Shown: positions 2,808 through 13,897, counted from the stretch's first letter. The stretch: 14,575 nt of DNA from Sulfurimonadaceae bacterium (GCA_041562555.1 JBFEXS010000054.1:1-14575), one strand, 5' to 3'. The notes: generated by a model from the sequence alone, not told the origin. Numbers and translations: made by a program.

Positions 2808-3686
2808 TCAAGCTAAAAATGCCTTTTTAAAGTCATCATATTTAAGTTTGGTGATCCCAATCTCACTGAAAAAACCTAAAATCGGTGCCTGGTCTGAGGC
2901 AAGGGAATGAAAATCATTATGGAAGCACTCCATGGTACTTGAAAGGATGTCATCCATCAAGTCACTTTTCTCTTCCTGAGTATAGTCATAATAGTGTTGT
3001 ATGGTCTTGTCTGAATTTTTTTGTATCCATACTATAGCTTCTTTGACAGCTTTGATAAAGACCTCACAGGTCTGTTTGTTCGTCTCGTACCATTGTTTGT
3101 TTGTAAAGATGTCCAAGGCACTGAAGTTGGCAAACCCTACATTTTCGGCATCTAGGAATAAAACCTCCATCCCCTCATGTTTCGCTTCGACCCCTTCAAA
3201 ATTATAAAAGTATAACCATCCGGCGTCGGCGCCTTCTTTCATGTATTTTAGGTGTTCAAATCCATTGGCTTGAAACTTGACTTGGTCTCGTTGTACATAA
3301 ACACCTTTGTTTGCATAAAACCGGCGGATGATCTCGAAGGCGATACTGTCTGTCCTCTCATTGGACACAGGGGATGTTACGGTGATACTTTGACCATGTA
3401 TCAGTTTTTCATAGGATGACTTTTTGAGCAGTACACCACCTTTTGTCTCGAAATAGGTTCCCATGGTCAAAAACCGCTCATCAAACTGTTCAATAAGATG
3501 TAGTGGTTCATTGGTGGCAAAATGGATGTTCCCATTACACAGTTCATCTAAACCGTCATAATGTTCTGTTGGTTCGATGATCTCTATATCAAGACCGTGC
3601 TTTTCAAAGATACCCTGGCGTATACCCACAATAAAGGGCAAGTGGTCCGGGTTTAAAAACCATTCGATTGCGAGTTTTAATTTCAT
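2808..3686 (-). CDS. NMT1/THI5 (ThiY-like) family protein, no signal peptide
   Basis: The N-terminus KLAIEWFLNPDHLPFIVGIRQGIFEKHGLDIEIIEP matches the NMT1/THI5 pattern (L[DN]W..N..H..G.F...GLDV.I.EP). It is the last gene of the thiD-thiE operon, with an ATGA overlap with thiE at 3683-3686. Confidence 0.85.
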   Translation of the reverse strand: MKLKLAIEWFLNPDHLPFIVGIRQGIFEKHGLDIEIIEPTEHYDGLDELCNGNIHFATNEPLHLIEQFDERFLTMGTYFETKGGVLLKKSSYEKLIHGQSITVTSPVSNERTDSIAFEIIRRFYANKGVYVQRDQVKFQANGFEHLKYMKEGADAGWLYFYNFEGVEAKHEGMEVLFLDAENVGFANFSALDIFTNKQWYETNKQTCEVFIKAVKEAIVWIQKNSDKTIQHYYDYTQEEKSDLMDDILSSTMECFHNDFHSLASDQAPILGFFSEIGITKLKYDDFKKAFLA

Positions 3687-4303
3687 CTGTTCATTCCTTG
3701 TTTTAAATTTTTAATGTTTTGTTGTATATCGCCTTTGAAAATGTCATGAACGATACTGATCATATCCGGTTGATGTACGGCTATATCGTGTATGTTGTTT
3801 CGGTTGATCCCTCCAATAGTACACACTGGGATATCCAGTGCTTCTTTAGCCTTTTGGATGACACTCATTGACACGATACCCGATTTAGGTTTTGTCGGCG
3901 AAGGAAAAAATGAGCCAAAAGCAACGTAATCTGCGCCTTCTTCTTGTGCCTCTTTGGCTTTACGGATACTTCCATAGCAAGAGACCCCTATGATACCCTT
4001 GGGAAAAATATCTCTTGCAGAAGATATCGGCATATCATCTTTTCCGATATGTAAACCATCAGCGTTTATCTTTTGTGCGAGGTGGGGCCTATCATCAATA
4101 ATGAAGGGCACTTTGTATTGTTTACACAGTCCAAGAAGTTCTCGGCAAATGTTTTCAATCTCATCGTCTTGTGCCGTTTTGTTCCGGTATTGAAGGATGT
4201 CTACACCTGCTTTGAGTGCTTCTTCGACCTGTGTCACAACAGTCTCATCCGGTGTAAGTGTTTCATCGGTAATAGCATATAGTCCCTTGAGTTTATGCGA
4301 CAT
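3683..4303 (-). CDS. thiE: Thiamine-phosphate synthase
   Basis: Motifs GLYAITD, QYRNK, IIDDR, GLHIGKDD, GVSCY, YVAFGSFFPSPTKP and IGGI. The start is reassigned to ATG 4303 (MSHKLKG), preceded by AAGGGGG and overlapping the thiD stop by 11 nt. Confidence 0.93.
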   Translation of the reverse strand: MSHKLKGLYAITDETLTPDETVVTQVEEALKAGVDILQYRNKTAQDDEIENICRELLGLCKQYKVPFIIDDRPHLAQKINADGLHIGKDDMPISSARDIFPKGIIGVSCYGSIRKAKEAQEEGADYVAFGSFFPSPTKPKSGIVSMSVIQKAKEALDIPVCTIGGINRNNIHDIAVHQPDMISIVHDIFKGDIQQNIKNLKQGMNR

Positions 4304-5075
4304 CCTGACCCCCTTGCTTATGATTGATCGGTCCTGGTCCGTGGCCAATGTCTGGGGCATGTTTTAAGGCTTGTGTGATAAACTGCTTGGCGATGGAAAT
4401 CGATGTCTGCAGAGACTTCCCCAGCGCAAGATTGGCGGCAATGGCACTTGAGTAGGAACATCCCGTACCATGTAGATTGTTGGTCGGGATCCGTTCACTC
4501 TCAAAGACCTGTACCACATCTGAAATGAAAAGCTTGTCAATACTTTTGTCTATGCCCATCTCATCTATGGTTTCGTTTTTGATAAGTACAGGGGTGGTCA
4601 TTCTGTTCAGATGAGGATTAGGTCCTGTATCCCCCGGAAGATATCCGAATAGTGCTTTTGCCTCGAACTGATTGGGTGTTATCAGGCTTGCATGTTCAAA
4701 TAGCTCTTTCATCCTCTCAACCGTGTCTTCTTGTAAGAGGGGAGAACCGGCTTTTGAAATAAATACCGGATCTAAAACAACAGGTATCTCATAACGGCTG
4801 ATGAAGCCTTTGACCACTTCCATGATTTCGGCGCTGTAGAGCATTCCTATTTTGATCGCAGCAACCTCAAAATCATTGAAAACCGCTTCAATCTGTGCGC
4901 GTACAAAGTCCGAGGGAACCGCATGAATCGCAGTCACACCGGTTGTATTCTGTGCGGTCAATACGGTGACAACGGATGTGCCAAATACACCAAAAGCCTC
5001 AAAGGTTTTTAAATCAGCCTGTATACCTGCTCCTCCGCTGGAATCAGAACCTGCGATGCTTAGTACTACTTTCAT
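4293..5075 (-). CDS. thiD: Hydroxymethylpyrimidine/phosphomethylpyrimidine kinase
   Basis: Motifs [56 protein letters not shown] and [18 protein letters not shown] at 5081-5086 (minus strand). Confidence 0.96.
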
Positions 5076-7905: not shown

Positions 7906-7933
7906 TGAATATCGATAAACAATGGACAAATCT

Positions 7934-9178
7934 ATGAGCGAACACTTTTATCTTGCAAGACAGGTTATTTTAGATAGTAATGACACGATCATGGGCTATG
8001 AACTCTTGTATCGAGACAGTGAAAACTCCAGTGGTATTGATAATCCGCGCCATGCTACGGCTGCAGTGCTTGTCAATGTGCTTAATCAATCGGGTTTAAA
8101 AAACATTGTCGGTGACAAGCTCGCCTTCATCAATGTTGAAGGCTCCTTTTTACGGCATGATTTTATTGAATCGATTCCCTCGGAGACCTTTGTCTTTGAA
8201 CTGACATCGACGGGTGTGTTTGATGAACGGAATATTGAACTGATTCAGATCCTTCATCGTAAAAACTATAAGTTCAGTTTAGACCTTGAAACGCATAAAA
8301 GTGTTTCTACACTTAAAAAGATTCTTCCATACATTTCCTGGATCAAGATCGATACCAGCACATTTGAACGGGAGTTCCTGGATTCCTTTATGCAAGAATT
8401 CCGAAGTCCAAACTTGAAGTTTATTGCTTCCAAAGTAGAAGATGAAGGAACATTTTTAAGATACAAAAAAGCCGGGTTTGATGCATTTCAGGGATATTAC
8501 TTCGCCAAGCCAAAGATCATCAAAGATAAAAAACTTGATGGAAACCATTTGACACTGTTCAAATTGTGTAACACGATTCAATCGGGAGCTTCGATTCCTG
8601 AGATCGTCCAGGAGTTTGAAGCAAACCCATCGATCACGCTGCAGTTATTGCAGTTTATTAACTCCGGTGCCTTCCATTTTAGGAACCGAATCTCTTCGGT
8701 ACATCAGGTGATTACACTGCTGGGTCGAAATACCTTGGTACAATGGCTGATGCTATTGCTTTATTCAAAGAACTTTGGAAACAGCCACCGGTTTCAAAAT
8801 CCGCTTATCCTGATGGTCAAGCAGCGAACAGAGATAATGGTCAATCTGATGAAATTGATCAAGAAAGATGCTTCACAAACAGAACAGAGCGAAGCCTATT
8901 TTGTGGGGATATTGTCGTTAATGGATACCTTGATGCATATCCCTCTGAAAGACGTGGTCAGCGAGTTCTATGTTGATGATAGCATCTATGATGCACTTTT
9001 CGATCAGAAAGGACTTTTGGGTGAGCTCTTTGCTACGGCCATAGCGGTAGAAGAGTTTGATACCAATGCCATTGATCAGTTTCGAAACAAATATAACATT
9101 GATGCCAAGGTCTTTGAGACGATGATGCTAGAGGTGATGGAGACGACTACTCAGATGCAAAAAGATTCAAATCTTTAA
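7934..9178 (+). CDS. EAL + HDOD domain signal-transduction protein (YuxH/PdeH-like architecture) with a degenerate EAL active site
   Basis: EAL part: FYLARQVI, GYELLYR, AFINV, WIKID, KVED, FQGYYFAKP. HDOD part: NPSITLQLLQFINS, ISSVHQVITLLG, AYFVGILSLMD. The start is probably ATG 7934 (GGA 7 nt upstream); ATG 7922 is an alternative. Confidence 0.9.
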   Translation: MSEHFYLARQVILDSNDTIMGYELLYRDSENSSGIDNPRHATAAVLVNVLNQSGLKNIVGDKLAFINVEGSFLRHDFIESIPSETFVFELTSTGVFDERNIELIQILHRKNYKFSLDLETHKSVSTLKKILPYISWIKIDTSTFEREFLDSFMQEFRSPNLKFIASKVEDEGTFLRYKKAGFDAFQGYYFAKPKIIKDKKLDGNHLTLFKLCNTIQSGASIPEIVQEFEANPSITLQLLQFINSGAFHFRNRISSVHQVITLLGRNTLVQWLMLLLYSKNFGNSHRFQNPLILMVKQRTEIMVNLMKLIKKDASQTEQSEAYFVGILSLMDTLMHIPLKDVVSEFYVDDSIYDALFDQKGLLGELFATAIAVEEFDTNAIDQFRNKYNIDAKVFETMMLEVMETTTQMQKDSNL

Positions 9179-10235
9179 GGATCTCATCCACACCCAGACC
9201 GATTTCTTTTTCAAGGCTTATCTGGTTCCTTTTGATGTGAAAGGCCTGTATAAGCGGATGGTCTTCAAGATAAAATGGTGAGTCTAAGTCCGCCATTGTG
9301 ATATTCTCCTGTGAAAGTGCAAAGTGTACGGCGGCAAGAAGGCTCAGAGGGCCTTCAAGCATCGATCCGATCATGCAATTTGTCGTATAATCTTTTGCTA
9401 GTTTTGCTATCTGTATTGCTTCATGGATACCACCGGATTTCATCAATTTGATATTAAGCATATGCGCACTTTGTGTCTCTAACAGACGTTTGGCATCCTG
9501 CCTGCTAAAAAGAGATTCATCAGCAAGTATAGGGACGATCCCTTGTTTGCATAAATACCTCATATCGGTATCCTTTGAAGGGGTAAAGGGCTGTTCCAAA
9601 CACTCTATCTGAGTGGTATCAATCGTTTCTAAAAAGTGTAGGGCACCGGAAAGCTCAAAGGCCTGGTTTGGGTCCAGTCTCAGTTTGATATGTTTGGGAA
9701 TGATGGCATTTATGGCATTCATACGTGCTATGTTTTTGTTTATGTCGGCATCAAGCTTTATTTTAAGGTGTTCAAACCCTTGTTCCAGGGCAGAGTAGGT
9801 ATGATTCACCATTGTATTGATGTCATCTACGGAGATAGTGAGGTCTGTTATAAGAGTGTTTCCTTTTGCTCCCAGGTAGTGAAAGAGTGGTTGTTTCTTC
9901 TCTTTTGCCAGAAGATCATACAGGGCGATATCAATACAGGCCTTAGCTTCAGTGGAAGCCTTACATTTATGAAGTGTTGTAAAAATAGTCTCGACATGGA
10001 TACTATGATGCATGAGTGCAGGGAATATGATTTCATTGAGTTCATTGAGCAGGCTTTCATTAGTGGTCCCGGTGATAGCAGTAACCGCACAAGCCTCCCC
10101 ATAGCCAACTAAAGGTGTGTCCGTACGGATCATGATCATGATATCATCTATGGCCTCTACCCGCCGTAAAGAGGTGACAAAGGGTTGTTTAAGGCCAATA
10201 TTCAGATGGGCAGTCTCAAAGCCTGTTATCTTCAT
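9147..10235 (-). CDS. Dipeptide epimerase (L-Ala-D/L-Glu epimerase, YkfB/YcjG-like, enolase superfamily)
   Basis: Capping-domain FVTSLR (with the YkfB-like Arg), GYGEA, DIALYDL, KIK catalytic motif, metal ligands in DPNQ, EQP and DES, second Lys in NIKLMKSGG, GSMLE and the DLD (DxD) motif. Start ATG 10235 forms an ATGA overlap with the DUF819 stop. Confidence 0.9.
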   Translation of the reverse strand: MKITGFETAHLNIGLKQPFVTSLRRVEAIDDIMIMIRTDTPLVGYGEACAVTAITGTTNESLLNELNEIIFPALMHHSIHVETIFTTLHKCKASTEAKACIDIALYDLLAKEKKQPLFHYLGAKGNTLITDLTISVDDINTMVNHTYSALEQGFEHLKIKLDADINKNIARMNAINAIIPKHIKLRLDPNQAFELSGALHFLETIDTTQIECLEQPFTPSKDTDMRYLCKQGIVPILADESLFSRQDAKRLLETQSAHMLNIKLMKSGGIHEAIQIAKLAKDYTTNCMIGSMLEGPLSLLAAVHFALSQENITMADLDSPFYLEDHPLIQAFHIKRNQISLEKEIGLGVDEILKDLNLFASE

Positions 10236-11365
10236 ACCATCCACCTTAGAACCTGATCAAGTATAAGAGCGACAAAGGTCCCTAGAACATAACCCATACT
10301 TGCCATCAACACACCGACTCCTACAAGACTTTGTGCATATGCAGCGGATAAGATAGGGGCTGAGGCGATACCGCCTATATTAGCTAAAGAAGCGACACTG
10401 ATACTGAAAAGATCCAGTCTAAAGAGTTTCGCAGATATCAGCATCAAAAGGGCATGTATGGAAAGGATGCCCAGGCCTAACGAGATGTAATACAAAAGAC
10501 TGCTGTCAAAATGTAGCTGAGCACGTGAGGCAATAAGCGCGATTAAAAGGTAGAGCATCGCGTTGGCACTGCCTTGTACCCCTCTTATTCTGGATAAGGG
10601 AGAGAAGGAAAAGAGAACCCCTAACATCGTGGCTACGAGAACAGACCAGGTCGTAGCCGAAGCAAAGAAATGGGATAAAAAAATGCCTGAGACCTGTGCG
10701 ATCATGGAGACTGTAACCGCGGCAAGGAGCAGATAGGCATATCCTCGGTAGGAGAAGTGAATGGCACAGCTCTTTTCAAGGTTAATATCTTCGATCGGGT
10801 CTTTAGCCCTGGTATAGCGATTGAACGCAGGTGCAAAAGGTACAAGGAAAAGTAAAAACATTACCCAAAGACTGTAGTCGATGGAATCAATCAACATGGT
10901 AATGCCCAGTTCGCTTTCATCCCCATTGATAGCAGAAGAGACAGCGATCATATTTCCTGTGCCTCCCATCCATGAACCGGCCAAAGGAGAAAGAATATTA
11001 ATGTCAGCCGTCTGCTGACTAAAGAGGATAAAGGTCGTAATGAAGGCGATAAAAAGGGTGATGTTTGCAAGCATGAAGCTAAGAAGCATCTTTGGTCCAA
11101 GTCTGAGAAGGTAAGAGATCTTATTGGGAAGGAGCATTAGGAACAACATTGCCGGTAGAAGGTTGCTTTTGAGAGTAGAATAGCTCTCTGTCAGTGTTTC
11201 ATCAAAGGTGAACAGTCCCCCTGAACTTAGGATCATAATGCATAGATAGAGTAGGACGATGGGAGGAAGGTAATGTAAGACTCTGTATTTCTGTTTGGAC
11301 AGATAGAGTGCAAGTATACTCATGAGAGAAATAAAGAGAAGATAGGAATATACATCGGAGATCAT
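10232..11365 (-). CDS. DUF819 family polytopic membrane protein (putative secondary transporter)
   Basis: About 10 hydrophobic segments. Motifs LPPIVLLY, LLPAMLFLML, LGPKML, LAGSWMGGTGNMIAV, LYLLIALIASRA, SLANIGGIASAP and GVLMASMGY..GT. Confidence 0.85.
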   Translation of the reverse strand: MISDVYSYLLFISLMSILALYLSKQKYRVLHYLPPIVLLYLCIMILSSGGLFTFDETLTESYSTLKSNLLPAMLFLMLLPNKISYLLRLGPKMLLSFMLANITLFIAFITTFILFSQQTADINILSPLAGSWMGGTGNMIAVSSAINGDESELGITMLIDSIDYSLWVMFLLFLVPFAPAFNRYTRAKDPIEDINLEKSCAIHFSYRGYAYLLLAAVTVSMIAQVSGIFLSHFFASATTWSVLVATMLGVLFSFSPLSRIRGVQGSANAMLYLLIALIASRAQLHFDSSLLYYISLGLGILSIHALLMLISAKLFRLDLFSISVASLANIGGIASAPILSAAYAQSLVGVGVLMASMGYVLGTFVALILDQVLRWMV

Positions 11366-12000
11366 GGTGCCCCTTGCAGATTGGTTACCTGATGACGAAG
11401 CTGTTTCATAAATGAAGCTCCCGGGTCATATTTTACAGTACGATAGTTCTTTTGTCGTTCCAGCCAAAGGGGATGATCCTGAAATCGGGTGTATTCATAA
11501 TGGGCAATGAGGTATTGGATGCTCGGATATTTTTTTTGAAGATAGCGAATCAGTTTGAGATTCGCTTCCAGCTGTGCCTGGGTGAGATTTTCACGGTTAC
11601 CTTCACCACCTACATTCTCAATACCGATGGCACTAAGGTTCAGGCCGATTACATGGCGGGCCATAACGGTCTCATCCATGAGTCTGTAGATCGTCCCGTC
11701 TCTGTCGACCAAGAAGTGTGCTGATACATTGAGTCCAGAGGCTTCTTGTATATCGGGGCGGTCTGAGGGAAGCCTGGAATTGACAAAGCGCTGATATGAA
11801 CGTTCAAACCCATTGATTGAGGTCCAGTGTATCACGAGAATCTTTGGTGTGATCATGCCGGTGTCTGACACAATGCCATAATGTGTCTTGATATATTCTT
11901 GTGTGAGTTTTAGACGTGTCTTGTCAAAGATGATTGGTCTGTCAATGATCGTTATGGCAAAGAGTTGGGCATATGCGAGTAGAAGAAGAGAAAGTCTCAT
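11362..12000 (-). CDS. Secreted N-acetylmuramoyl-L-alanine amidase (Amidase_2/PGRP family)
   Basis: Zn ligands in VIHWT, IAHYE and KYDPG (Asp as third ligand, as in AmpD/AmiD), plus SAHFLVDRDG, ARHVIGLN and catalytic IGIEN. The start is reassigned to ATG 12000, giving the signal peptide MRLSLLLLAYAQLFA and an ATGA overlap with the upstream gene. Confidence 0.9.
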   Translation of the reverse strand: MRLSLLLLAYAQLFAITIIDRPIIFDKTRLKLTQEYIKTHYGIVSDTGMITPKILVIHWTSINGFERSYQRFVNSRLPSDRPDIQEASGLNVSAHFLVDRDGTIYRLMDETVMARHVIGLNLSAIGIENVGGEGNRENLTQAQLEANLKLIRYLQKKYPSIQYLIAHYEYTRFQDHPLWLERQKNYRTVKYDPGASFMKQLRHQVTNLQGAP

Positions 12001-13124
12001 GAACCTGCTTTGATGATGATCTTTGAGATTTCGCTTGGAGCCAATACCCGTATAGGCGGACCCCAATATCCGGTACCGCGGCTTACGAAGATCTGTTGGT
12101 CCTGATTATGTTGATACAGACCTGCAAGATAGGGCTGGTCAATCATGACGAGTAGACCGAAAGGAAAGATCTGCCCGCCGTGGGTATGTCCGCTCAGCAT
12201 CAGATCACAAGGTCTCTCTTCCAGTCGCAGAATGCTCTTGGGCTGGTGAGCCAATACAATGGTCGGTAGATCCGGATGAACACCTTCATACGCCTTTGGT
12301 ATATCCATCGGGTGCTCACCGATGCGTTCGCCAATCACATCGGTGAGCCCCACAAGGTTAAAATGATAGTCGCCATCTTTAATCTGAATACTCTCATTGA
12401 GTAAGACGGTAATGCCCAACTCCTTCATATAGGCGATCACTGCATCTGCTCCATGAAAATATTCATGGTTTCCCAAGATAAAAAATGTAGGCACCTTGAT
12501 CTTCTTCAGTGGTTCCAAATCCTCTTTTATCTCGTCAATATTATGATCGATTAAGTCACCGGTGATGGCAACGATATTCGGGCTTTGGTCATTAACACGG
12601 CGGACAAGCTCTTCCATGAAATGTTTTTTAAGACTTTTCCCAATGTGCACATCGCTCAGTTGTATGATGACATATGCTTCACTGTTAAATCCATTGATAT
12701 TGACACCAATAGTGTTCAAAACAGGTTCGCGAAGCCCTCCTTTTAAGCCCTTGAAAAGGTAGCTGAAGGCAAGAATGAGCATGGTCGTATCAAAAACGAT
12801 CTTAATGAACTTACGGCGACTCTGCTCAAAGGGTACATGCTTAAACACAGAGATATTCAGATCATAGATAACGGCTATAACAAAAAACAAGAAGGTAATG
12901 CCGATAGAGGCTGACAGAACATAATAAAGGGTTTCCGAGTCTGTAAAAATCTGAAATAAGATCTGTAAAACAAAGAGTACCTCACCGAACATCAAAAGCA
13001 AAGGAAGTATAAAGGAGTAACGATTAAAGGGTGGATGAAGTTTTAAAAAAAAGCGCTTATAGGTGTAATAGTTGAATGCAGCCATGACAGCAAGAAACAG
13101 TATGAAAAAAAGTGAAAATTTCAT
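11997..13124 (-). CDS. Membrane-anchored metallophosphoesterase (YkuE/YaeI-like, calcineurin-like superfamily)
   Basis: Complete MPP motifs SDVH, TGDLID, GNHE, LAHQP and SGHTHGGQ, plus VSRGTGYWGPPIR. Four N-terminal hydrophobic segments. Confidence 0.92.
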   Translation of the reverse strand: MKFSLFFILFLAVMAAFNYYTYKRFFLKLHPPFNRYSFILPLLLMFGEVLFVLQILFQIFTDSETLYYVLSASIGITFLFFVIAVIYDLNISVFKHVPFEQSRRKFIKIVFDTTMLILAFSYLFKGLKGGLREPVLNTIGVNINGFNSEAYVIIQLSDVHIGKSLKKHFMEELVRRVNDQSPNIVAITGDLIDHNIDEIKEDLEPLKKIKVPTFFILGNHEYFHGADAVIAYMKELGITVLLNESIQIKDGDYHFNLVGLTDVIGERIGEHPMDIPKAYEGVHPDLPTIVLAHQPKSILRLEERPCDLMLSGHTHGGQIFPFGLLVMIDQPYLAGLYQHNQDQQIFVSRGTGYWGPPIRVLAPSEISKIIIKAGS

Positions 13125-13864
13125 AAGTGCTTGTATCCGATATCTTGTTCGTCAAGAAAGTCTGTAAATGTCTTGAAATGTTTGTTCAAGAGTTCTTGGT
13201 CCTTGGAACTGAGTCTAAACTCAACATTTGCTTTTCCATTATTGATGATGGGTAGGGACGAAAGCTCAATGTCTTCGGGAAGATTAAACATAAGCTCCTG
13301 GAGTTTCCCTTCTCCGCACTGTGCCAGGAAACCCTGAGTGAATTTAGTCGGTGCCTGGGGGATATACTCGGATATGATAGTATCCATCATTGGTTGGGCC
13401 ATCTCCGGAAAACCAGGCATGAAGAAGTATCGATCTTGCAGTTGGAAACCCGACATGTTATTCACAGGATTGAAAAGAAGAGAAGCATCCTTTGGCAGGT
13501 CAGACATCCTGATAGGATGTGGGTAGGCCCTCTCTTGCAGACGGTTGATGATGTCTTGTTCAAACTTTGGATGTCTATAGAGTCTTCCGTCACCAAAGAC
13601 GTTAGCACTAAGCTGTCGCGTAAGGTCATCGGGTGTCGAACCGATACCTCCGAAACTGAACATCATCGCTTTTTCATCTTGTTTGATCAATTCATAGGTG
13701 TTCGTGATCAACACGGGGTCATCTTTTATGATGAAGGAGCTAAAGAGTGAGGTGCCTTTTCTTTGGAGTCCCTGACTGAGATAATCGAAGTGTTTGTCTT
13801 TGCGCCGACCGTCTAGTATCTCTGTTCCGATGATAACGGCGTATATATGAGGTTCATCAAGCAT
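13121..13864 (-). CDS. Stand-alone COG1058 (CinA N-terminal, molybdopterin-binding-fold) protein; probable ADP-ribose/FAD pyrophosphatase
   Basis: Motifs IIGTEILDGRRKD, SFGGIGSTPDDLT, NPVNNMSGF and MPGFPEM; there is no PncC C-terminal domain. The start is probably ATG 13864 (AAGGA at 13871-13875, 6 nt spacing); 13870 and 13879 are alternatives. Confidence 0.85.
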   Translation of the reverse strand: MLDEPHIYAVIIGTEILDGRRKDKHFDYLSQGLQRKGTSLFSSFIIKDDPVLITNTYELIKQDEKAMMFSFGGIGSTPDDLTRQLSANVFGDGRLYRHPKFEQDIINRLQERAYPHPIRMSDLPKDASLLFNPVNNMSGFQLQDRYFFMPGFPEMAQPMMDTIISEYIPQAPTKFTQGFLAQCGEGKLQELMFNLPEDIELSSLPIINNGKANVEFRLSSKDQELLNKHFKTFTDFLDEQDIGYKHL

Positions 13865-13870
13865 ACTCAT

Positions 13871-13897
13871 TCCTTGCATAAATCAGAAGCCATTTTA
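13871..13897 (-). promoter_or_regulatory. Putative -10 box (TAAAAT) and RBS for the five-gene operon
   Basis: On the minus strand, TAAAAT lies at 13892-13897 and AAGGA at 13871-13875. Confidence 0.45.

Follow-up and report, generated by a model that had tools for sequence, protein, structure and literature searches.

Known murein-peptide modules, i.e., ykfB/ykfC in Bacillus subtilis, mpaA-ycjG-pepD in Escherichia coli and BT1313-BT1314 in Bacteroides thetaiotaomicron, share a common chemistry comprising an amidase step, a cut between gamma-D-Glu and the diamino acid, an epimerization and a dipeptidase step. In Bacillus, murein peptides are taken up by ATP-binding cassette (ABC) systems. Uptake in B. 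thetaiotaomicron goes through BT1086, a putative oligopeptide permease, after epimerization, and one report postulates an extracytoplasmic version of murein-peptide catabolism for Bacteroides (PMC4600125). In E. coli, the periplasmic amidase AmiD frees peptides that are imported by MppA/OppBCDF, a transporter of sugar-free peptides, so that scavenging is also possible (PMC10622912); this ATP-driven system relies on a binding protein and feeds stem reuse. AmpG and YejBEF-YepA likewise import products of wall turnover. Here, we describe a locus in which consecutive genes encode an amidase, a DUF819 membrane protein and an epimerase. It lies in a 14,575-nucleotide stretch of a Sulfurimonadaceae bacterium (GCA_041562555.1, JBFEXS010000054.1:1-14575; hereafter, the window), which corresponds to contig C54 of a genome (G000) of 2.1 Mb and 89% completeness.

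From comparative sequence evidence, we consider it fairly probable that the window's DUF819 protein imports L-Ala-D-Glu for salvage together with the amidase and the epimerase. Such an arrangement would resemble that of AmiD with MppA/OppBCDF, but with one secondary carrier, a likely dipeptide cargo and no Mpl found. AmpG and YejBEF-YepA differ from DUF819 in taking sugar-linked muropeptides and in being major facilitator superfamily (MFS) or ABC proteins. Compared with the known murein modules, a single DUF819 gene would serve for uptake, the epimerase is leader-free, and the DL-peptidases are of the DvLysin or Pgp1/Csd4 type. The enzymatic pathway is already known; the new part is the carrier assignment and the place of the cut.

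Five minus-strand genes in the window are chained by ATGA overlaps at 13121-13124, 11997-12000, 11362-11365 and 10232-10235, and encode, in this order, a molybdopterin-binding-domain protein, a metallophosphoesterase, an Amidase_2 protein, DUF819 and an enolase-superfamily protein. A first-pass annotation had described the last three as joined by stop/start overlaps, and both of these were present, with coordinates and families as it had given them: amidase to DUF819 at 11362..11365 and DUF819 to epimerase at 10232..10235 (minus strand, each reading 'tcat' on the given strand). Among 30 loci from relatives, the window included, inspection of flanks of about 1.5 kb revealed the epimerase at 28 and the amidase at 22. 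Because the trio was kept while the flanking genes changed, only amidase-DUF819-epimerase is regarded as the conserved unit, and its linkage is more than chance.

In 61 related genomes, DUF819 (E <= 1e-30) and the epimerase occurred in exactly the same 32; these genomes are kin and not independent, and no p-value is given. Two genomes with fragments only (G036) or a weak match (G042) were left out of the DUF819 count, and both were without the epimerase. The fragments in G036, which is a complete genome, are a decayed DUF819 remnant (L208, G036:C1:412418-412915), and the amidase is missing there as well. The amidase was found in 30/61 relatives, 29 of them among the 32 DUF819-bearing genomes. 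In an even draw from the window's phylum, DUF819 was present in 12/201 genomes, none of them in the two largest families. AmpG was detected in 0/61 relatives, in keeping with the earlier suggestion of an AmpG-independent route; this does not extend everywhere, as AmpG scored over cut-off in two of nine other genomes bearing the same DUF819 branch, both proteobacterial.

The amidase (11362..12000, minus strand; 212 amino acids from the ATG at 12000) is an Amidase_2-family N-acetylmuramoyl-L-alanine amidase (PF01510, E 3.6e-19; 69.8 bits against a cut-off of 26) that aligns with T7 lysozyme. H58, E128, H167 and D192 were invariant in 22/22 neighbouring amidases; by analogy with AmpD/T7 lysozyme, we take H58, H167 and D192 to be zinc ligands and E128 the catalytic Glu. 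Residues 1-15 (11956..12000, minus strand) form a predicted Sec signal peptide, a leader of 15 hydrophobic residues ending in Ala that was judged by eye. Similar leaders were seen in full-length homologues, and in fusions to a GH3 domain the amidase domain begins where the leader of the window amidase stops. The amidase is thus likely exported, in line with its earlier description as a signal-bearing enzyme, and the zinc ligands noted there are intact. The GH3 fusions, in which the same amidase follows a NagZ-like domain, occurred in four relatives and adjoin a sodium:solute symporter, a context that links the amidase group with the breakdown of muropeptides without recourse to DUF819. The fusion loci (L203:3012-6159, L205, L206 and L207, with AnmK nearby in L205) may represent a sugar branch, with the symporter as the putative importer of (anhydro)-N-acetylmuramic acid (MurNAc). 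In Paraglaciecola, related sodium:solute symporters are found next to MurQ and a BadF-type kinase.

The third gene of the trio (9147..10235, minus strand) encodes an enolase-superfamily dipeptide epimerase of 362 amino acids without a leader (MR_MLE_N/C, E 8e-12 and 3e-41). Its closest PDB matches were 3jva, 3r0k and 1jpm/1tkk (E 1e-61 to 8e-57); the first two are dipeptide epimerases, and YkfB of B. subtilis is among the closest solved relatives. The acid/base lysines K158/K160 and K263 and the metal ligands D188, E214 and D239 are all kept, as are R24 and the DxD motif D316/D318; the matching residues in YkfB are K160/K162, K268, D191, E219, D244, R24 and D321/D323, respectively. According to a computational preprint, the DxD of YkfB binds the amino terminus and R24 the Glu carboxylate of L-Ala-L-Glu (bioRxiv 10.1101/2022.05.01.490185). 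Among full-length neighbouring epimerases, R24 was found in 73/73 and DxD in 72/73, and leaders in none. The enzyme is thus predicted to be of the L-Ala-D/L-Glu type, a specificity that rests on the PDB alignments and the preprint, and the first-pass view of a cytoplasmic epimerase with Ala-Glu motifs held.

Its best NCBIfam model was the Ala-Glu model NF041118 (184.5 of 500 bits), with NF011708 giving 103.4 of 343 bits; both models appear to be lineage-narrow. The second-best model was that for DgcA (NF042940), which raises the alternative that the enzyme is an N-acyl amino acid racemase for free D-glutamate use. A DgcN-DgcA route for D-Glu does exist in marine bacteria (PMC10845958), but the DgcA score of 148.8 bits is far under its cut-off of 400 and also trails the Ala-Glu score, the enzyme retains the DxD pair for binding a free amino terminus, and the annotated neighbours include no recurrent acetyltransferase partner. 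It could also be argued that the genes are linked without a common pathway, given that two unrelated genes lie within the same ATGA chain. These two genes are genus-specific, however, whereas the linkage of epimerase and DUF819 spans seven phyla and is accompanied by fusions, as set out below. Taken together, we regard either version of this explanation as extremely improbable.

The DUF819 protein (10232..11365, minus strand; 377 amino acids), the proposed L-Ala-D-Glu importer, matched PF05684 (E 4.4e-63) with residues 16-374 against model positions 7-377 of 379, scoring 214 bits against a cut-off of 27. Its identity to proteins bearing Sulfurimonas and Arcobacter labels is 68-69%, which suggests that the genome belongs to the Campylobacterota. 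An AlphaFold model built on a 100-row alignment (predicted local distance difference test, 92.9) has ten long helices and two helical hairpins, in line with the roughly ten transmembrane segments noted previously; a hydropathy scan gave nine. The model agrees with the published topology, which lists DUF819 with ten helices, two re-entrant, and the N-terminus out (PMC8396727). Lysine and arginine residues numbered 15 in predicted inside loops and three outside, and both termini are therefore predicted to face outward. No relative at E <= 1 was found by sequence in the PDB. By structure, Foldseek ranked CitS first, and a second aligner gave Z 28.3 for AspT (root-mean-square deviation, 3.4; 348 residues) and Z 24.2 for CitS (4.5; 369 residues), with Na+/H+ antiporters well below (Z up to 13.8). 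Identity to AspT/CitS-type carriers is 12-14%. The predicted structure is thus the CPA/AT re-entrant fold, with ten helices, two inverted repeats and two Gly-rich hairpins, resembling the two inverted five-helix repeats and Gly-rich hairpins of AspT (AAEx), CitS (2-HCT) and GltS (ESS). On this model, a carrier role for DUF819 is well founded. Within the first hairpin tip (residues 132-138; 10952..10972, minus strand), G134, G135 and N138 are invariant across the family; the second tip (residues 326-337; 10355..10390, minus strand) contains L327, which marks the branch discussed below. A published guess that a DUF819 protein is an MFS-like sugar symporter (PMC4521371) conflicts with the fold matches and was rejected. 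Viral contigs contained no DUF819 relative.

The solved carriers of the closest folds move single amino acids or carboxylates, which counts in favour of the importer reading, although none of these cargoes is a peptide. In an alternative reading, DUF819 might carry a free wall amino acid (D-Glu, D-Ala, L-Ala or meso-diaminopimelate, mDAP), or exchange or export substrates as AspT does, while the dipeptide enters otherwise. The best fold match is itself an Asp:Ala antiporter, and the clan includes Glu and citrate symporters, according to the topology report (PMC8396727). Moreover, a distant DUF819 group adjoins pyridoxal phosphate (PLP)-dependent decarboxylases at three loci (L186, L191 and L195). 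A decarboxylase neighbourhood is the context expected for a substrate/product exchanger, and suggests one like AspT in that group. However, the fold fixes neither the cargo nor the direction of transport, the tightest partner of DUF819 needs an intact dipeptide, as judged from its retained R24 and DxD, and no other peptide permease recurs in the loci of the trio. We therefore think this explanation quite improbable and retain L-Ala-D-Glu as the favoured cargo.

A FastTree analysis of 165 rows grouped the epimerase-linked DUF819 copies in one branch of 119 rows, with a support of 87 (97 without the deepest row; 93 in a second FastTree tree). Y164 and L327 were present in 24/24 representatives of this branch versus 0/29 others. 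The epimerase lay within the fetched flank at 85/117 branch loci, and the epimerase, an SH3-NlpC/P60 peptidase or this amidase at 94/117, one gene being counted twice in these loci (as L007 and L174). Eighty of the loci are from GTDB, namely the 80 ranking highest by similarity to a branch member out of at least 588 loci; they were chosen by similarity and are kin rather than independent. Amongst them, 52 had the epimerase, 32 an SH3b-NlpC/P60 gene and 60 at least one of the three partners. By labelled phylum, the epimerase link was seen at 17/35 loci of Campylobacterota, 15/23 of Pseudomonadota and 12/15 of Bacillota, and at single loci of Fusobacteriota, Synergistota, Thermodesulfobacteriota and Rifleibacteriota i.e., seven phyla in all, in a tally based on open reading frames (ORFs) that totals one fewer than the locus count. 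A locus labelled Flavobacterium (L040) was not counted as a phylum because its label is probably wrong; both its DUF819 and its gene order group with those of Paraglaciecola.

Recurring neighbours in the branch included LD-carboxypeptidase, MurQ, BadF-type kinase, NagA-like, GH3 and M15 genes, as well as serine beta-lactamase-fold peptidases, PepD, M19, TonB receptors and DUF3870, in a family scan of 116 representative neighbour proteins. The partners NlpC/P60, LD-carboxypeptidase, MurQ, GH3, NagA-like, PepD and M15 point to murein breakdown. Thirty-two neighbouring NlpC/P60 proteins had signal-like leaders by eye, and the one that was compared matched DvLysin best (3m1u, E 4e-26). DvLysin cuts gamma-D-Glu-mDAP both in peptidoglycan and in fragments of it (PMC4600125), and PnpA, a secreted relative, leaves stems that are dipeptides (PMC7860986). 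Two fusions of DUF819 to SH3b-NlpC/P60 were found within the branch, P0163 (835 amino acids) and P0270 (818 amino acids, 16 cluster members), which are 49% identical and both come from metagenomes. The fused peptidase follows the DUF819 C-terminus, which is predicted to face outward. No further hydrophobic helix follows the carrier directly in P0270; the topology of P0163 is less sure because of a short hydrophobic linker at this point.

Two further families accompany the module. DUF3870 (about 110 amino acids) separates the DUF819 gene from the epimerase gene at 14 mostly clostridial loci (L044, L068, L076, L086, L102 and others) and is a second uncharacterised family tied to the module. The unannotated cluster c25 (about 225-255 amino acids) often follows the epimerase in gammaproteobacterial loci (L042, L063, L103, L209); its homologue in the window genome (L218, G000:C3) adjoins an NhaC-family gene, itself a frequent module neighbour.

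These observations suggest the following route. Exported peptidases would cut stems at D-Glu-mDAP outside the cytoplasm, and the amidase, whose family is clear and which is likely exported, would free the peptide from MurNAc. DUF819, as an elevator-type secondary carrier of AspT/CitS fold probably coupled to Na+ or H+, would import L-Ala-D-Glu; with the cut made outside and the epimerase inside, this is the molecule that must cross. The epimerase, on the strength of its motifs, would turn it into L-Ala-L-Glu, from which a PepD-like dipeptidase encoded elsewhere would release L-Ala and L-Glu. The cargo had been proposed to be either a stem peptide or L-Ala-D-Glu; of the two, we favour the dipeptide. 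In G000, contig C20 carries a Csd6/Pgp2-like gene that precedes a signal-bearing M99 (csd4/pgp1-like) gene, and Pgp1 of Campylobacter jejuni trims tripeptide stems to dipeptides (PMC3310789). A peptidase of the DvLysin type is present in nearly all relatives. In favour of the route, M14/MpaA, AmpG and AnmK gave no match in the 89% complete G000. Mpl was not over cut-off, the search giving only a weak Mur-ligase match at a doubtful sensitivity; since no Mpl passed, the route would serve amino acid recovery rather than stem re-ligation. The peptides may come from the cell's own wall or from foreign walls.

Several findings weigh against this assignment. In G000, no SH3_6 gene was found, the PepD-like gene elsewhere in the genome scores below cut-off (291.9 of 343.75), and one family-5 binding protein could offer an ABC route. 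The epimerase reached no NCBIfam cut-off. Exported DL-peptidases, with M99 in 46/61 and SH3_6 in 46/61 of all relatives, were equally common in those without DUF819; an M99 or SH3_6 protein was present in all 32 DUF819-bearing relatives and in most others, and the presence of the peptidases therefore permits the model and is no test of it. Within the branch, 28/80 GTDB loci had no nearby epimerase, some being cut by contig ends. Of five branch members lacking the epimerase in their vicinity, a genome-wide search with the window protein as query at E <= 1e-20 found none for three (G708, G624 and G893). Finally, DUF819 adjoins PepD in G624 and an M19 dipeptidase at L106, and the branch may therefore carry ordinary dipeptides too.

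The last points also bear on a broader explanation, in which DUF819 is a carrier of short peptides, whether ordinary dipeptides, murein tri-/tetrapeptides or both, and the epimerase just makes L-Ala-D-Glu digestible. Branch members in genomes without the epimerase fit this view, and longer stems would also be among the products of the amidase. Further support comes from outside the branch, where DUF819 copies often adjoin peptidases i.e., S9 at four Pseudomonadota loci and in Xanthomonas, M19 dipeptidases at five distant Bacillota loci (L178-L181 and L184, one also with an X-Pro dipeptidyl-peptidase), S15 or M15, as well as CstA and oxoprolinase; others adjoin decarboxylases, and many copies lie beside unrelated genes. 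An M15-DUF819 cassette is reported in Neisseria meningitidis (PMC12671195). On the other hand, Y164 and L327 are invariant in this branch alone, the epimerase disappeared along with DUF819 within the order of the window, the neighbouring NlpC/P60 peptidases look exported, and a cytoplasmic MpaA/M14 enzyme for tripeptide processing is among those not found in G000. We consider a broad carrier rather unlikely for the window and prefer import of L-Ala-D-Glu, with one branch that looks specialised, though probably not exclusively, for the murein dipeptide.

The link to the epimerase is not a property of the whole family. Even draws gave a DUF819 match in 17/251 genomes of Pseudomonadota, 19/251 of Bacillota, 8/121 of the phylum of G248 and 2/18 of that of G251. 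Leaving out the seed loci, weak matches (G449 and G652) and a genome without a DUF819 ORF (G523), this yielded 44 copies, 41 outside the branch and three inside, one of the three having the epimerase. No Ala-Glu epimerase lay near any of 46 DUF819 loci outside the branch, and a family-wide link was rejected, also because only 3/44 evenly drawn copies belong to the branch. The sole enolase-family neighbour among the outside copies (L169) aligns weakly and is not an Ala-Glu epimerase. Linkage of epimerases and NlpC/P60 peptidases to DUF819, which had been anticipated from the window, was therefore found within the branch and was absent for epimerases outside it; similarly, the proposed importer role is supported for the window's branch by linkage, co-occurrence, fusions and carrier fold, and does not hold family-wide. 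Neither of two Cytophagales records, the only Bacteroidota sampled, had murein neighbours at its DUF819 locus, and the long DUF819 proteins with N-terminal extensions, all outside the branch, have no second Pfam domain. Ala-Glu epimerases as well as DUF819 proteins have been reported from land plants (PMC3605383, PMC6121227). Given the neighbours outside the branch, the family therefore looks like one of short-peptide or amino-acid carriers.

With somewhat less assurance than for the window itself, we lean towards the wider proposal that the branch is a single-gene, ion-driven elevator importer selective for L-Ala-D-Glu. It would serve a 'digest outside, import dipeptide' route in seven phyla or more, AmpG-less Campylobacterota among them, with the peptidase sometimes tethered to the outer face of the carrier, and the whole family would represent the arm of the AspT/CitS fold that carries peptides. 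The first-pass annotation noted no experimentally assigned substrate for DUF819, and the open literature searched likewise gave no substrate or murein link, although subscription papers, supplements and transporter or fitness databases could hold one; the 'yjcL' of PMC13566226 is a name for another protein. DUF819 thus has a predicted fold and no substrate in the literature searched, and naming a commercially ordinary dipeptide makes the reading testable. If true, it would add a new importer type to cell-wall recycling, explain the recovery of wall nitrogen and carbon in free-living Campylobacterota without AmpG, provide marine and anaerobic bacteria with a route into organic matter containing D-amino acids, and extend the AspT/CitS fold to peptides.

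The first gene of the chain (13121..13879, minus strand; PF00994) encodes a molybdopterin-binding domain, CinA N-terminal-like, and has an uncertain start codon; CinA models were below cut-off for it and its membership of the module is not supported. The second gene (11997..13124, minus strand; PF00149) encodes a membrane-anchored metallophosphoesterase that is ATGA-coupled but falls outside the conserved module; only within the genus of the window was it found next to the trio. A scan for promoters and terminators was at chance level (14 vs 12.0 and 5 vs 3.6). The 3' end of the epimerase gene overlaps a convergent EAL/HDOD gene (7922-9178, plus strand) by 32 bases (9147-9178); the same neighbour is found in most loci of the genus, with at least four further paralogues in G000. 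Finally, minus-strand thiamine salvage-like genes are located at 2808-5075 and include one for an NMT1/THI5 protein, and two others that, from their sequences, are presumably ThiD-like and ThiE-like.

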